Shown here: positions 5,240 to 16,843 of the stretch, piece by piece
How positions within the stretch are numbered: the first letter of the stretch is position 1
Layout of the letters: every line of letters begins with the position of its first letter
Assembly: GCF_056712565.1 (NCBI RefSeq)
Contig: NZ_CM160072.1
Direction: 5' to 3' (one strand)
Length of the DNA: 64,000 nt
Translations under genes and position numbers: made by a program
The notes under the pieces: generated by a model
Database searches by the model: none
What the model saw: the letters and a program-made list of their open reading frames with translations, nothing else
What the model was told of the DNA's origin: nothing

Positions 5240-6490
5240 ATGGAAAGTAAAGTAGTTGTTCCGGCACAAGGCAAGAAGATCACCCTGCAAAACGGCAAAC
5301 TCAACGTTCCTGAAAATCCGATTATCCCTTACATTGAAGGTGATGGAATCGGTGTAGATGTAACCCCAGCCATGCTGAAAGTGGTCGACGCTGCAGTTGA
5401 GAAAGCCTATAAAGGCGAGCGTAAAATCTCCTGGATGGAAATTTACACCGGTGAAAAATCCACACAGGTTTATGGTCAGGACGTCTGGTTGCCTGCTGAA
5501 ACCCTTGATCTGATTCGTGAATATCGCGTTGCCATTAAAGGCCCGCTGACCACTCCGGTTGGTGGCGGTATTCGCTCTCTGAACGTTGCCCTGCGCCAGG
5601 AACTGGATCTCTACATCTGCCTGCGTCCGGTACGTTACTATCAGGGCACTCCAAGCCCGGTTAAACACCCTGAACTGACCGATATGGTTATCTTCCGTGA
5701 AAACTCGGAAGACATTTATGCGGGTATCGAATGGAAAGCAGACTCTGCCGACGCTGAGAAAGTGATTAAATTCCTGCGTGAAGAGATGGGCGTGAAGAAA
5801 ATTCGCTTCCCGGAACATTGCGGTATCGGTATTAAGCCGTGTTCGGAAGAAGGCACCAAACGTCTGGTTCGTGCAGCGATCGAATACGCAATTGCTAACG
5901 ATCGTGACTCTGTGACCCTGGTGCACAAAGGCAACATCATGAAGTTCACCGAAGGCGCGTTTAAAGACTGGGGCTACCAACTGGCGCGTGAAGAATTTGG
6001 CGGTGAACTGATCGACGGCGGCCCGTGGCTGAAAGTTAAAAACCCGAATACCGGCAAAGAGATCGTCATTAAAGACGTGATTGCTGATGCATTCCTGCAA
6101 CAGATCCTGCTGCGTCCGGCTGAATATGATGTTATCGCCTGTATGAACCTGAACGGTGACTACATTTCTGACGCCCTGGCAGCGCAGGTTGGTGGTATCG
6201 GTATCGCCCCTGGCGCAAACATCGGTGACGAATGCGCCCTGTTTGAAGCCACCCACGGTACTGCGCCGAAATATGCCGGACAGGACAAAGTAAACCCAGG
6301 CTCTATTATTCTCTCCGCTGAGATGATGCTGCGCCATATGGGTTGGACTGAAGCGGCTGACCTGATTGTTAAAGGTATGGAAGGCGCAATCAATGCCAAG
6401 ACCGTAACCTATGACTTCGAACGTCTGATGGAAGGCGCTAAACTGCTGAAATGTTCAGAGTTTGGTGACGCGATCATCAAGAATATGTAA
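5240..6490 (+). CDS. icd: Isocitrate dehydrogenase (NADP); 3' ~165 bp is the prophage-adjacent copy of the att duplication
   Basis: 416 aa [41 protein letters not shown]...; classic Icd. Confidence 0.95.
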
Positions 6491-8664: not shown

Positions 8665-8882
8665 TTAATCCCCCTTTGTTTGCGGATAAGCTCCAGATCT
8701 TGCTGGCAACTGGCGCAAGTCCGACAACCCTGAACGGCCAGGCGTCTTCGTTCATCTATCGGATCGCCACACTCACAACAATGAGTGGCAGATACAGCCA
8801 GGTAGTTCAGGCGGCGCATTTTTATTGCTGTGTTGCGCTGTAATTCTTCTATTTCTGATGCTGAATCAATGATGTCTGCCAT
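8661..8882 (-). CDS. TraR/DksA-family C4 zinc-finger protein
   Basis: 73 aa ORF with CxxC-n17-CxxC (CCECGDPIDERRRLAVQGCRTCASC), typical of phage TraR-like proteins. Confidence 0.7.
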   Translation of the reverse strand: MADIIDSASEIEELQRNTAIKMRRLNYLAVSATHCCECGDPIDERRRLAVQGCRTCASCQQDLELIRKQRGIK

Positions 8883-9268
8883 CTTTCATTAATCCCTGAA
8901 CTGTTGGTTAATACGCTTGAGGGTGAATGCGAACAATAAAAAAGGAGCCTGTAGCTCCCTGATAATTTTGCTTTTCATGTTCATCGTTCCTTAAAGACGC
9001 CGTTTAACATGCCGATTGCCAGGCTTAAATGAGTCGGTGTGAATCCCTTCAGCGTTACCGTTTCGCGGTGCTTCTTCAGTACGCTACGGCAAATGTCATT
9101 GACGTTTTTGGAAACTGCTGTCTGACTTTTTTGATTTCAGAATTAGCCTGACGGGCAATGCTGCGAAGGGCGTTTTCTTGCTGAGGTGTCACTGAACAAG
9201 CCCCATGTCGGCAAGCATAAGCACACAGAATATGAAGCCCGCTGCCAGAAAAATGCATTCAGTGGTTG

Positions 9269-12351: not shown

Positions 12352-12552
12352 TCAGGCAGCTTTGTTGTTCTGTTTACCAAGTTCTCTGGCAATCATTGCC
12401 GTCGTTCGTATTGCCCATTTATCGACATATTTCCCATCTTCCATTACAGGAAACATTTCTTCAGGCTTAACCATGCATTCCGATTGCAGCTTGCATCCAT
12501 TGCATCGTTTGAATTGTCCACACCATTGATTTGTATCAATAGTCGTAGTCAT
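12352..12552 (-). CDS. ral: Restriction alleviation protein Ral
   Basis: 66 aa; MTTTIDTNQWCGQFKRCNGCKLQSECMVKPEEMFPVMEDGKYVDKWAIRTTAMIARELGKQNNKAA. Confidence 0.92.
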   Translation of the reverse strand: MTTTIDTNQWCGQFKRCNGCKLQSECMVKPEEMFPVMEDGKYVDKWAIRTTAMIARELGKQNNKAA

Positions 12553-12765
12553 ACGGATAGTCCTGGTATTGTTCCATCACATCTTGAGGATGCTCTTCGA
12601 ACTCTTCAAATTCTTCTTCCATATATCACCTTAAATAGTGGATTGCGGTAGTAAAGATTGTGCCTGTCTTTTAACCACATCAGGCTCGGTGGTTCTCGTG
12701 TACCCCTACAACGAGAAATCGGATAAACTCTATTCACCCCTACAGAGAGCAAAAGAGAAACGCCG

Positions 12766-13347
12766 ATGAACAACTCATGGTGGCAGGAACTAATGCATTT
12801 TTTCCTGCAAGGAATGACACTTAAACAGTTGATTCATATGCTAATCATCCTGATCATATTGATTATTGTTATGCCGGTAAGCGTAAAAGAATGGATAAAC
12901 CTGCATAATCCAGAAATCCTTCCTCATTACTGGATGTATTACATCCTGTTGTTTTGCGTTAGCTATGTGCTTAACGGCGTTGTTAATTCCGCTTATCACG
13001 CTGTGACTGAAAGAATTGAGGTATTCGCTGCTCAGAAGCGCAAATCTAAAGAAGAAAAATATGTGCAAGATTTGTTTGATTCGTTAACTCTTGGAGAAAG
13101 AGCGTATTTGGCATTCGCTGTAGCCGCTAATAACCAGCTACAAACGGAAAAGGGCGCTCATGAATCAATTTCATTGCTCAAAAAAGGACTCCTCGTTCGA
13201 AGGCCTCCTGCTGTTGGATATCCTGATACCGACCGTTTCGTTATCCCTGAAAGCTATAGACATGAGTGCTACATTAGGTTTGCCGGGAAGGCAGACAGCC
13301 TTATGGATGAACTTATCGCTCAGGATAAGCATGGCAAAAACAAGTAA
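12766..13347 (+). CDS. sieB: Superinfection exclusion protein B
   Basis: 193 aa membrane protein (LIHMLIILIILIIVMPV) in the lambda sieB position and orientation. Confidence 0.85.
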   Translation: MNNSWWQELMHFFLQGMTLKQLIHMLIILIILIIVMPVSVKEWINLHNPEILPHYWMYYILLFCVSYVLNGVVNSAYHAVTERIEVFAAQKRKSKEEKYVQDLFDSLTLGERAYLAFAVAANNQLQTEKGAHESISLLKKGLLVRRPPAVGYPDTDRFVIPESYRHECYIRFAGKADSLMDELIAQDKHGKNK

Positions 13348-13363
13348 TTAGCAAATGAATTTA

Positions 13364-13636
13364 TCATCTCGCCGTCAGTTGTTTTGATTTCCGGTAGCCT
13401 GCCGCGTAAAGAGCTACGTTCGGAAGACAAGTTGAACCTTCATATTTTCTGGTCAACGTTGTCAGAGTTATCACTTCTGCTCTCATTGCTGGTTTGAGCT
13501 TGCATTGCAAGACCACTCGTGAAGGGGTTGGCCTGTGTAGCTTGTCGGAGCTGATCGCCTCCTGACTTTGCAGATTTGCGCGACGAGCTCTACGGCGAGA
13601 AGCTGCGGTGCCTTTAAATTCTGTTTTTCTGGACAT
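13364..13636 (-). CDS. N: N-like transcription antiterminator
   Basis: Start chosen at MSRKTEFKGTAASRRRARRANLQSQEA (arginine-rich motif near N-terminus); lies just downstream of nutL on the leftward transcript. Confidence 0.7.
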   Translation of the reverse strand: MSRKTEFKGTAASRRRARRANLQSQEAISSDKLHRPTPSRVVLQCKLKPAMRAEVITLTTLTRKYEGSTCLPNVALYAAGYRKSKQLTAR

Positions 13637-13733
13637 GGATTCCTCCCGAATAAACTTTGGCGATGCAATCTCGAAGCTCCTCCTGAGACGGTTGCTTCGG
13701 CATTGCATCCCACAGCTTATGTGGTTGGGTGAT

Positions 13734-13779
13734 CTGGCTTTTCAGCCACGTAGTCGAGAGTCGACGTTGTTTAAAGAGC
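13734..13779 (-). promoter_or_regulatory. nutL (boxA GCUCUUUAAACAACG and boxB hairpin GGCUGAAAAGCC)
   Basis: Reverse complement of 13765..13779 matches boxA consensus; 13734..13745 forms a GAAA-loop hairpin resembling the nutR boxB of this phage. Confidence 0.6.
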
Positions 13780-14040
13780 CTGCCAGTCTGTTCCATTTGG
13801 CTTCCAGCGTCCTGCTGACGGTTAAATAGTACGATATGTACTTTACAAGATCAATACAATTTGTTGTAAGTTGGCGTGGTTTTTTATAACGCTTTGTATT
13901 TAATAGTGTTGTTTTTTAGCGTGGATGTATTGCCTCGGCGATGTAAGGAGAGATCAGAATTGCGTGGTTTAGTGGGTTGCATCTATTTATTTTTCAATAA
14001 ATATAATTGGTTATGTGTTTTTAGGTGGGCGAACGTGAGG

Positions 14041-14067
14041 CAAAGAAAACCCGGCGCTGAGGCCGGG
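14041..14067 (-). terminator. Rho-independent terminator after the two-gene operon
   Basis: Minus-strand hairpin CCCGGCCTCAGCGCCGGG followed by TTTTCTTT, 5 bp after the stop of the 250 aa gene. Confidence 0.7.
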
Positions 14068-14072
14068 TTGTA

Positions 14073-14825
14073 TTATGCTGCAAGTCTCTTAACCCAAGTC
14101 TCTCTTTTGGAGAATGGTAGAACTTGGCTTGATTCATGGAAGAGTAAGGAGAGTTGTTGCATTTGATCACCAATTGCTTCGCTGTCTATAACAACAAATC
14201 TGTTGTTATACTCCTCACTTGAAGCTTTAAGATCAATTAGTTTCCCAAGCAATGAGTAAGCACTATTCCAGCTTCCTCCGTGTTTCACGCTTGATGTAAA
14301 AACGTATTTAGGTATGTCGGTTTTTATTGTTACAGGGACGGTAATTTGATGTCCACTCAAGCCATATACGTTTTCACGAAGAGAAAGTGCGTCTCTAAGC
14401 TCTGTGTGATATAGATAATCAATAACCATACTTTCAAACTTTTCAGCTTGAACTGGCTGATACCAGTCTAACGACAAAGTTGATGCGAGTATACCAGCTC
14501 TAATTATGTTCGATGTAATCGCACCGACATCCTTTTCTGTTGCCCAAGCAATGATTTCTCCTCGAGCATTGAGTTCTGCGCCTTCTTTAAGCAGTAATTG
14601 TCGTATCTCATCAAGTCGTTTTTTGGTAAGCGAGATCCCTCTTGCCTCCATATTCATTAAGGCATCGCATCTGTCACTAACTAAATACCTACCATTGACT
14701 TCACGGATAAAGGCACCGACATGCTCTCCATCATCACAGTAAGTGAATGGACTGATAATTCTCAAGGTCTTGCCTATTGGATGGCATTCGAAACCTAGTT
14801 GTGAGATCACTGTTGAGCACATCAT
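14073..14825 (-). CDS. Unknown protein (250 aa), distal gene of immunity-region operon
   Basis: ORF MMCSTVISQLGFECHPIGKTLRIISPFTYCDDGEH...; AT-rich (~35% GC); start overlaps upstream gene stop by 4 bp; no motif I recognise. Confidence 0.65.
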   Translation of the reverse strand: MMCSTVISQLGFECHPIGKTLRIISPFTYCDDGEHVGAFIREVNGRYLVSDRCDALMNMEARGISLTKKRLDEIRQLLLKEGAELNARGEIIAWATEKDVGAITSNIIRAGILASTLSLDWYQPVQAEKFESMVIDYLYHTELRDALSLRENVYGLSGHQITVPVTIKTDIPKYVFTSSVKHGGSWNSAYSLLGKLIDLKASSEEYNNRFVVIDSEAIGDQMQQLSLLFHESSQVLPFSKRETWVKRLAA

Positions 14826-15379
14826 ATTCCAAACCCCATTTGCCCCGACTCATCTTCAAGCGGTAAAGGTATTCTCCCAGAGTAAGTTATGTTCAGATGT
14901 TTACAGAAGTAATTCCAATACCCTACCAGGTCATCTGGGTTTATGTCATCTTCGATTGGAAACGCTATTCTATCACTATAGTATCCAGCTTCTTCATAGT
15001 ATACATGGTAGTGAGCACCGTAAATGATATCTTGGTACTTCGGATGATCGACCTTGTAACTATTCGTGTGTTTGTCAAAGTGATAGGTATCTACCGCGAA
15101 AACCCTCTTGTTATGATAGAAAGCAATAATATTTATTTTAGGGTAAGAAATCGGGTCATCAGGTTCTGAATCCTGATCTGGTTTCCATTTCAGTTCAAAC
15201 TTTAGCCCTTGTATAGGTATACAATCCTCATCCAAGGGGATGATATGGGCTTGTAGCCACATATCAGAGCGACTTGGTTTCTGTTTCCATTTAACGCCAG
15301 AAAAGTTAACTATTTTTTTACAATAAAGTACTTTATCAACTTCTACTTGGCTTGGCTGATAATCATCTATTTTTGCCAA
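14822..15379 (-). CDS. Unknown protein (185 aa), proximal gene of immunity-region operon
   Basis: ORF MAKIDDYQPSQVEVDKVLYCKKIVNF...; begins 39 bp after the cI stop; AT-rich; no motif I recognise. Confidence 0.65.
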   Translation of the reverse strand: MAKIDDYQPSQVEVDKVLYCKKIVNFSGVKWKQKPSRSDMWLQAHIIPLDEDCIPIQGLKFELKWKPDQDSEPDDPISYPKINIIAFYHNKRVFAVDTYHFDKHTNSYKVDHPKYQDIIYGAHYHVYYEEAGYYSDRIAFPIEDDINPDDLVGYWNYFCKHLNITYSGRIPLPLEDESGQMGFGI

Positions 15380-15418
15380 TGTTTACCGCCCTGTAAATTG
15401 TAGATAAAAGTGGTTTCA

Positions 15419-16078
15419 TCACCCAAACGTCTCTTCAGGCCATTGGCTGGCGATAACTTTCCCCACAACGGAACAACTCTCATTGCATGGGATCATTGGG
15501 TATTGTGGGTTTAGTGGCTGTAGAAACACCTGACCGCTATCCCTGATCAGTTTCTTGAAGGTAAATTCATCACCACCAAGTCTGGCTATGCAGAAATCGC
15601 CGGGCTCAACAGCTTGCTCAGGGTCAACCAGAATTAACATCCCGTCAGGAAAGCTGGGTTTGGAACCTGTTGGTGCGGTCATTGAGTTACCTTCAACCTC
15701 AAGCCAGAATGCAGAGTCACTGGCTTTTTTGGTTGTGCTTACCAATCTCTCCGCATCGCCTTTGGTAAAGGTTCTGAGTTCTGGAGAGAACATCCCAGCC
15801 TGAACATGAGAAAAAACAGGGTACTCATATTGTTTTTTAACTGGGGCCGATGAGTATTCGCCAACAGGTGAAAATGTCCCGTCGTGGTTGAATGATATGT
15901 TATCAATACCAAGGTATTTAAACACCACACCAATATCACTAAGAGATGGATGACGAGATCCGCGCAACCAGTGTCCAATCCCACCCTGCGTCATACCTAG
16001 CTCTTCGGCTAACTTCTCTTGAGTTATGCCGAGCTCTTTCATTCTGGATCTAGCCAGTTCATACCATTTCATTTTCAT
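15419..16078 (-). CDS. cI: CI-like prophage repressor (HTH plus S24 LexA-like peptidase domain)
   Basis: [40 protein letters not shown]... and C-terminal autocleavage-type domain; start chosen at ATG with AAGGA RBS (tracked ORF extends to 16120). Confidence 0.85.
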
Positions 16079-16189
16079 GTCCTTATTATTACGCTCTGTA
16101 CTGGAACCATCCATGCACAATGTGTATTTTTACTTGTATTCGCAAAGTACATATTGTATTTTTTTATTCGTGTTTACTATGGAGGGCAT
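16079..16189. promoter_or_regulatory. Divergent pRM/pR region with OR operators
   Basis: 111 bp AT-rich intergenic region between divergent cI and cro, containing short inverted repeats (e.g. GTACTT...AAGTAC). Confidence 0.55.
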
Positions 16190-16405
16190 ATGAGCAACCT
16201 ACGAAAATATCGAGAGTCACTGAATATCTCTCAAACAACACTTGCTAAGGCAGTTGGATGCACACAGGGAGCTATCGGACATTGGGAATCTGGTCGTCGC
16301 TTCCCAGACCTTAAAACATGCCGTGCTCTTGTTGCGTGCCTAAACAAGTTAGGCGCAAAAGTCAGTCTTGATGACGTGTTCCCGCCGGAACACAAAGCCG
16401 CTTAA
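16190..16405 (+). CDS. cro: Cro-like HTH repressor
   Basis: 71 aa MSNLRKYRESLNISQTTLAKAVGCTQGAIGHWESGRR...; GGAGG RBS; divergent from cI. Confidence 0.8.
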   Translation: MSNLRKYRESLNISQTTLAKAVGCTQGAIGHWESGRRFPDLKTCRALVACLNKLGAKVSLDDVFPPEHKAA

Positions 16406-16415
16406 TAAGCGGATC

Positions 16416-16461
16416 CGCTCTTTGTAACAACGGACATTCGTCCTACGTCGCTGAAAAGCGA
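16416..16461 (+). promoter_or_regulatory. nutR (boxA CGCTCTTTGTAACAA and boxB hairpin TCGCTGAAAAGCGA)
   Basis: boxA-like sequence then GAAA-loop hairpin just downstream of cro, same geometry as nutL. Confidence 0.6.
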
Positions 16462-16546
16462 GTTCCAAGATATCTGACCAACTAAGGCCATATGCGTTTC
16501 CACGCATACCTTTCAACTAACTATTCACTATTGGAAATCTTAAGAA

Positions 16547-16843
16547 ATGGAAAGAACAAGTTACAGCAAACTATCACAGCGTGACGTTGATCGCGCAGAA
16601 ACAGATTTACTTATCAATCTGTCAGCTATTACCCAGCGCGGTCTGGCAAAGATGATTGGCTGTCATGAATCGAAGATAAGCAGAACGGACTGGAGATTTA
16701 TTGCTTCGGTCTTGTGTGCTTTCGGAATGGCATCAGACATCAGTCCGATTAGCAGGGCTTTTAAGTATGCGCTTGATGGACTCACCAATAAAAAACGCCC
16801 GGCGGCAACCGAGCGTTCTGAACAAATCCAGATGGAATTCTGA
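16547..16843 (+). CDS. cII: Transcriptional activator CII
   Basis: 98 aa; C-terminus ...ILTNKKRPAATERSEQIQMEF matches what I recall of lambda CII. Confidence 0.85.
   Translation: MERTSYSKLSQRDVDRAETDLLINLSAITQRGLAKMIGCHESKISRTDWRFIASVLCAFGMASDISPISRAFKYALDGLTNKKRPAATERSEQIQMEF

Follow-up and report, generated by a model that had tools for sequence, protein, structure and literature searches.

The A-B gene pair and its cargo slot

The stretch analyzed here (the window) comprises 64,000 nt of contig NZ_CM160072.1 from assembly GCF_056712565.1, and all coordinates are window positions. The subject is a pair of minus-strand genes, designated A and B, that lies directly after the cI repressor gene of a lambdoid Escherichia coli prophage and probably encodes an anti-phage defense module. 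Gene A (14822..15379) starts at TTG and encodes 185 aa, and gene B (14073..14825) starts at ATG and encodes 250 aa. The stop codon of A overlaps the start codon of B by 4 bp (ATGA; 14822..14825, minus strand), which is read as translational coupling of the two genes. These two open reading frames (ORFs) had been described by an earlier reading made from the letters alone (the sequence-only reading), and their sizes, strand, coordinates, and overlap were verified.

The order of elements on the minus strand is cI, A, B, terminator, a spacer of approximately 170 nt, operators/pL, a large hairpin, and an N-like gene. The cI gene (15419..16114, minus strand) encodes a LexA-like protein with a helix-turn-helix (HTH) domain and an S24 peptidase domain, which matches phrog_4 “transcriptional repressor” (E 1e-62) and is annotated as a 696-nt “LexA family” gene in phage ev017 and strain CFT073. 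An intergenic stretch (15380..15418, minus strand) separates the cI stop codon from the A start codon, with cI ending 37 nt (15382..15418) ahead of the TTG. On the other side of the pair, the terminator scan identified a rho-independent terminator-like hairpin followed by a T-run (14041..14069, minus strand); the stem (14069..14048) has eight pairs, six of them G-C, and the tail is TTCTTTGCCT. Operator-like repeats assigned to oL (13824..13864, minus strand) cover a putative pL with a -35 hexamer TTGATC (13854..13849), a 17-nt spacer, and a -10 hexamer TACTAT (13831..13826); these hexamers were read by eye, and their score of 8/12 is under the promoter-scan threshold. The operator-like sequence at 13824-13844 is repeated, inverted, at 16144-16164 between cI and cro, which locates the A-B pair between cI and oL/pL. 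The earlier placement of the pair directly after cI, on the same strand and before oL/N, is therefore borne out by the ORFs and the shared operator-like repeats. The N-like antiterminator gene (13364..13636, minus strand) encodes 90 aa with an arginine-rich N-terminus and is annotated in CFT073 and in its Stx2a_WGPS8 homologue. It is the first gene of the pL operon and forms the downstream limit of the cargo slot.

Published work describes the cI-to-N slot as a hotspot of mosaic diversity, with rexAB in lambda and bstA in BTP1 as occupants that are both expressed together with the repressor (PMC8585504). The A-B pair holds the same cI-to-pL position, and its assignment to the rexAB slot was correct. 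Window positions 13300-16250 are 100% identical to Escherichia phages ev017, ev207, PhiR57_1, and PhiR63_2. Phage 2G7b has the same cI/N backbone with other cargo, and its homology to the window covers 13300-14069 and 15417-16250. Because this homology breaks at 14069 and 15417, the BLAST breakpoints define an exchangeable segment at 14070..15416 that contains A, B, and the spacer. Exchange of the 1.35-kb cassette is precise, with the cI stop codon at one limit and the shared terminator at the other, which agrees with the sequence-only reading of the pair as cargo (a moron). That reading also gave the pair a terminator of its own, but 2G7b homology extends through 14069, so the terminator belongs to the common phage backbone and not to the cassette. 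Other cargo found in this slot on the same backbone includes a 283-aa protein in 2G7b, which has no PADLOC match, and a 173-aa protein in Stx2a_WGPS8. The Stx1a-converting phage Stx1_121427 (LC645425.1; locus L017) encodes identical A and B proteins after a different S24 repressor and before a different N protein of 127 aa; therefore, the cassette moves between lambdoid immunity regions, and this case points to a recent exchange. GC content is 39.6% in A+B, compared to 46.3% in cI, 49.5% in N, and 48.6% in the whole window. A dip in GC had been proposed and is real, but it reaches 39.6% rather than the approximately 35% originally given.

The terminator scan found no terminator-like site between cI and A. 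The promoter scan of the region returned five promoter-like sites compared to 6.3 expected by chance; the sole site in the cI-A gap (15397..15369) overlaps the A start codon, and the scan gave no support for a separate promoter of the A-B cassette. Because no terminator separates cI from A and promoter-like sites are fewer than chance would give, a single cI-A-B transcript from the maintenance promoter would be the simplest reading, with cI presumably the first gene of the unit and the 14041..14069 hairpin its probable end. A 77-nt anti-phage small RNA, svsR, is located at the cI 3' end in the lambdoid prophage NC-SV of Escherichia coli NC101 (PMC12803456, 2026). If NC-SV has the same cI, svsR would abut gene A (window 15419-15500), and the phenotypes of NC-SV prophage deletion could then also involve A-B. 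No Rfam match was found at the cI 3' end (15419-15500), although the svsR sequence itself was not compared.

Several other features lie near the slot. A 16-nt inverted repeat (88% complementary, 16-nt loop) is present at 13662-13709 in the leader just 5' of the N start and may represent either the boxB-like hairpin of nutL or a hairpin for RNase III-type processing. A 60-aa ORF (13614..13796) that is annotated in CFT073 overlaps the N leader. Just past N, on the plus strand, is a sieB-type superinfection-exclusion gene (12766-13347), and thus the prophage already has at least one other exclusion function. An Rfam search of 12500-16600 gave no credible RNA family.

Proteins A and B and conservation of the pair

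Protein A is predicted to be cytoplasmic, and its structural model is confident (predicted local distance difference test, pLDDT, 88; predicted template modeling score, pTM, 0.84) but has no solved structural counterpart. Residues K22, W31, R92, D97, N106, G121, H123, H125, F158, and P173 are invariant, and H104 is nearly invariant. An HxH arrangement is typical of a metal site. In the A model, D97, N106, H123, and H125 are on adjacent strands together with H104, which suggests that this predicted cluster (D97/H104/N106/H123/H125) is a metal-binding or catalytic site. Significant AFDB50 matches to A comprise about 45 proteobacterial proteins, all of them uncharacterized except one labelled “Phage tail protein.” A match to Pfam DUF6978 (PF22398) at residues 104-164 is weak (E 4.6e-4), and within the A family this match reaches E <=1e-3 in 2 of 23 members and E <=0.1 in 15 of 23. 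The sole PDB profile match to A, designed Kelch-repeat proteins, was rejected as the sum of six insignificant repeat matches.

Protein B is also predicted to be cytoplasmic, with a two-domain model (pLDDT 85). Its N-terminal domain (approximately residues 1-116) has a fold like that of YbjN and type III secretion chaperones and corresponds to Pfam DUF1828 (PF08861), which matches residues 26-110 (E 9.1e-8) and is matched by 10 of the 11 aligned family members. Invariant residues in this domain are S25, P26, Y29, D32, G33, D51, R70, and E90, including the motif S25-P26-x2-Y29-x2-D32-G33. The resemblance to YbjN, DUF2170, and type III secretion chaperones is one of fold without sequence kinship, and B has its own invariant motif; from the modelled fold we infer a binding function for the chaperone-like domain. 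The C-terminal domain (approximately residues 128-250) is restriction-endonuclease-like, with the alpha-beta-beta-beta-alpha-beta core fold present. G155, S157, G158, P164, W186, and D198 are invariant in it, H159 and K173 are nearly invariant, and residues 155-159 form a GxSG(H) loop. Unlike the PD-(D/E)xK nucleases Can2/Card1, PspGI, NgoMIV, and AF1548, the B family has no conserved D...(D/E)xK; strands 2 and 3 contain no invariant acidic residue, and K181 is variable. A canonical nuclease role for B was therefore rejected, and nuclease activity cannot be assumed. The PDB sequence-profile search returned nothing for B.

Both proteins were searched for transmembrane (TM) segments, Walker A motifs, and the HEPN-type Rx4-6H motif, and none were found, as the sequence-only reading had noted; Kyte-Doolittle means over 19 residues peak at 0.45 in A and 1.19 in B. 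Neither protein has a secretion signal. The same reading assigned no motif at all to the two proteins, and this part does not stand, as B matches DUF1828, A weakly matches DUF6978, both belong to PHROG families, and both have weak matches to PDC-M24A/B (discussed below). Its statement that no nuclease signature is present also needs revision because the B C-terminal domain has a restriction-endonuclease-like fold, with catalytic residues that are not conserved.

Cluster representatives in a database of 5.8 billion proteins number 21 for A and 47 for B, and they come from Escherichia, Salmonella, Klebsiella, Yersinia, Serratia, Photorhabdus, Xenorhabdus, Pectobacterium, Aeromonas, and others. 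The A family is small: among 1.84 billion representatives searched exhaustively, only 16 relatives of A reached E <=1e-3. Further hosts of the pair include Pasteurellaceae, a Pseudomonas phage, and environmental metagenomes. The pair immediately follows the repressor, with the same 4-bp overlap, in prophages of Salmonella and Aeromonas. In the viral-contig set, which consists of 80 IMG/VR contigs recovered with the B profile, the pair is intact in all 80, and A ends 4 bp past the position that matches B residue 1. The gene order A then B is kept at every locus examined (viral contigs and genomic and metagenomic loci). Conservation as a pair had been set beforehand as a test of the sequence-only reading, and A and B were found together at each of these loci. 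Genes 5' of A fall into 20 sequence clusters, about 18 of which are CI-type repressors (HTH plus S24 peptidase, or HTH only). Even distant A homologues with 22-26% identity precede a DUF1828 protein.

Pairwise identities of A and B are correlated (r = 0.95, 36 distinct pairs). A diverges faster than B, with about 71% identity in B corresponding to about 57% in A, which would be compatible with A being a specificity subunit. Conservation of both proteins reaches 22-30% identity across proteobacteria, with clusters of invariant residues. Nonsynonymous divergence (dN) is 0.09-0.3 among closer relatives and up to 0.68 for the Aeromonas pair, while synonymous divergence (dS) is saturated. Because homologues occur in many genera and dN is well below saturated dS, these comparisons show that A and B are real genes under purifying selection. 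Some deposited E. coli copies are shortened to 102-146 aa (A) or 155-173 aa (B) (P0013, P0020, P0051, P0057; L041; A0A0H2YYK9 of APEC O1), and these may be disrupted genes or assembly/annotation fragments.

Genomic contexts and relation to known systems

Of 5426 complete E. coli genomes, 249 (~4.6%) carry the cassette at >=99% identity, and 11 of these 249 have less than 80% of it covered. All copies are chromosomal, and no plasmid carriage was found. Carriers include CFT073, Nissle 1917, S88, and the E. coli type strain, and an identical protein is annotated in UTI89. Among phage records, 8 of 50,697 carry B. In Pseudomonas phage VB_PaD_phPA-G (PP083311.1; L107:3264-4004), the pair is in the operon of a CI-like repressor, and the A homologue is an unannotated ORF (E 4e-21 against the family profile) directly 5' of the annotated B-like gene.

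A clade with approximately 30% identity in B was found outside prophages. At locus L098, in a defense island, the pair is flanked on one side by HsdR (type I restriction), a YgjP-like protein, and a HEPN/RES protein, and on the other side by AbiTii. At locus L102, it is beside a SIR2-like gene, and the A gene is present although it was not called. A transposase of the IS1595 insertion sequence (IS) family is located 3' of the pair in four independent metagenomic contexts (loci including L100, L103, L104, and L105/L106). At L103 (6410-8898), 45-nt terminal inverted repeats (6410-6454 and 8854-8898) enclose A, B, and the transposase, so that here the pair travels as a passenger inside a 2.5-kb transposable element. 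At L104, the A-B-transposase unit interrupts a phage tail-gene module.

A set of 145 candidates obtained by “guilt-by-embedding” in BREX, DISARM, and type I restriction-modification (RM) systems includes PDC-M24, which is defined as the cassette FAM_00129>>FAM_00065 and was recorded 153 times in RefSeq (Payne et al., 2024, bioRxiv 10.1101/2024.01.29.577857). PADLOC hidden Markov model matches are given here by E-value. B weakly matches PDC-M24B (PDLC04540, E 4.7e-10, residues 2-249 against positions 4-254 of a 256-position profile; PDLC04539, E 1.5e-7), and so do B homologues down to 27% identity. A matches PDC-M24A (PDLC04536) with an E-value of 4.8e-4 at residues 104-163 only, within its conserved C-terminal half; of nine distant A homologues, four have similarly weak matches and five have none. 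Like the A-B pair, PDC-M24 consists of a small A protein followed on the same strand by a B protein of about 255 aa, both uncharacterized. However, the matches are remote (that of A is partial, at E 5e-4), and PDC-M24 was defined from copies inside BREX, DISARM, or type I RM systems, whereas the window copy is prophage cargo after cI. It is in the immunity region and is not embedded in a known defense system; its distant relative at L098 is beside defense genes. These matches suggest that the pair is a divergent relative of the catalogued candidate.

PHROG families 2017 and 1960, both of unknown function, include A and B. NCBIfam has no family for either protein, toxin-antitoxin families included. 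The pair had been called unrecognized and novel, a description that can no longer be kept: PHROGs and Pfam already list the family, and PADLOC catalogues a related cassette as a candidate. Literature on DUF1828, DUF6978, PDC-M24, the protein accessions, and the PhiR phages contained nothing on function, with the prophage-defense screen of Brenes and Laub (2025) not covered.

The A-B pair resembles lambda RexAB in being two-gene cargo of the same slot, 3' of cI on the same strand and 5' of pL/N, with presumed expression in the lysogen. RexB is a membrane protein, whereas A and B have no TM segment, and gene sizes and order also differ. Lacking a membrane component, A-B is probably a positional analogue of RexAB rather than a homologue. 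No Rex-named match was found in PADLOC, PHROGs, NCBIfam, or Pfam, and A and B were not compared directly with lambda RexA and RexB. RexAB is a classical exclusion/abortive-infection system, and BstA, which is encoded directly 3' of many prophage repressor types and presumed to use the repressor promoter, also mediates abortive infection (PMC8585504). A-B shares with BstA its location directly after prophage repressors. However, BstA is a single protein unrelated in sequence, and no counterpart of its self-immunity element aba was identified at A-B. HepS of Gifsy-1, a single HEPN protein, was also considered and is unrelated to the pair.

In Nissle 1917, the “phage repressor pr” (EcN_1294) is reported to reduce plating of lambda and Stx phages more than 200-fold (Bury et al., 2018, PMC5987069), and the window prophage appears to be of the same type as Nissle prophage 3. 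The published primers map to 16501-16802, which contains neither cI nor the pair. They fall on a cII-like gene (16547..16843, plus strand), and therefore EcN_1294 corresponds to cII rather than to cI in this type of prophage. The Nissle result was thus rejected as prior evidence for the A-B locus.

Probable anti-phage defense and alternative functions

Four lines of evidence point to a lysogen-expressed anti-phage defense module, most likely acting against superinfecting phages, as the probable identity of A-B. The slot is proven for defense, selection has kept the pair linked to many unrelated repressors, it has remote kinship to PDC-M24, and distant copies have defense genes as neighbors. 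The defense function proposed in the sequence-only reading is supported by these associations, and we infer it rather than observe it. Several points weigh against it. Phage resistance is assigned to A-B, and likewise to PDC-M24, by association and is unproven. The PADLOC match of A is weak and partial (E 5e-4). No recognizable effector domain was found in A or B, the endonuclease-like domain of B has no conserved catalytic triad, and A has no structural relative. Co-transcription with cI is a prediction from sequence. The range of carriers (prophages, genomic islands, and an IS element) is also compatible with an addiction module or other selfish cargo.

As a defense module, A-B would be a two-protein cytoplasmic moron co-transcribed with cI in the lysogen, with transcription from pRM (and pRE) running through cI, A, and B. 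The two proteins may form a complex that is kept inactive until infection. B would serve as a sensor or scaffold, in which the chaperone-like N-terminal domain could bind a phage protein or peptide, or A, and the endonuclease-like C-terminal domain could bind nucleic acid. A would provide a metal-dependent enzymatic activity through the D97/H104/N106/H123/H125 cluster. The infected cell could then undergo abortive infection, or nucleic acid of the phage or the host could be destroyed. The division of labor between A as the enzyme and B as the sensor or scaffold is a tentative, rather doubtful part of this scheme. A broader statement, which we stop somewhat short of endorsing, is that A-B could be a mechanistically new two-protein system, in which A would have a new fold with a His/Asp metal center and B would combine a chaperone-like sensor with a degenerate endonuclease fold. 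Such a system would have spread via repressor operons, defense islands, and IS1595-family transposons and would be active in CFT073 and Nissle 1917.

Many toxin-antitoxin systems double as defense systems. A toxin-antitoxin-like addiction module, in which one protein would be toxic and its partner would neutralize it so that the carrier (prophage, island, or IS) is stabilized, therefore overlaps with the defense reading, and as a separate explanation of A-B it is unlikely. The two genes are small and tightly coupled by the 4-bp overlap, A and B diverge together as a unit, and mobile settings of three types carry the pair, among them one IS1595-family element bounded by 45-nt terminal inverted repeats. 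However, no NCBIfam toxin-antitoxin family was matched, neither protein has a recognizable antitoxin DNA-binding domain, and 185 and 250 aa are large for a type II pair. The steady position after CI-type repressors also suits genes for lysogenic conversion that are expressed in the lysogen.

Conversion genes of another kind could benefit the host in ways that have nothing to do with phages, for example through stress tolerance or through virulence in extraintestinal E. coli. The 249 carriers among 5426 E. coli genomes include the pathogens CFT073, S88, and UTI89 and the probiotic Nissle 1917, and presumed expression from the lysogenic operon would be consistent with such a role. We nevertheless consider it quite improbable. 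The same pair is found in Salmonella, Aeromonas, Yersinia, Photorhabdus, Pasteurellaceae, a Pseudomonas phage, and metagenomes, and this span of genera and environments argues against a niche-specific host trait. Defense genes adjoin the non-prophage copies, and A and B are predicted to be cytoplasmic, with neither a secretion signal nor a TM segment.

For the lambda switch, modulation by RexA is reported, and PMC12894663 cites literature on binding of RexA at pRM. An accessory, RexA-like regulator of the lysis-lysogeny switch or of replication would explain why the pair is always in the repressor operon in viral contigs. However, phages that share the cI/N backbone can do without the cassette and carry other cargo in its place, an identical cassette is found after different repressors, and distant copies have no phage genes nearby. 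A regulator of one switch is not expected to transfer in this way, and this explanation is accordingly very unlikely. Finally, chance reading frames or decaying remnants might be suspected from the TTG start of A and the shortened copies in some E. coli (P0013, P0051, and the 146-aa form in APEC O1), but this is effectively refuted by conservation to 22-30% identity across proteobacteria with invariant residue clusters, by dN far under saturated dS, and by confident predicted folds for both proteins.

If A-B is an anti-phage defense module, a candidate PADLOC family would be validated, the classical cI-to-N slot would have a new occupant beside rexAB and bstA, and a function would be gained for the A fold, which has no solved relative. 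With the cassette in ~4.6% of complete E. coli genomes, among them the probiotic Nissle 1917 and the uropathogens CFT073 and UTI89, phage therapy could be affected, as could the reported phage resistance of Nissle.

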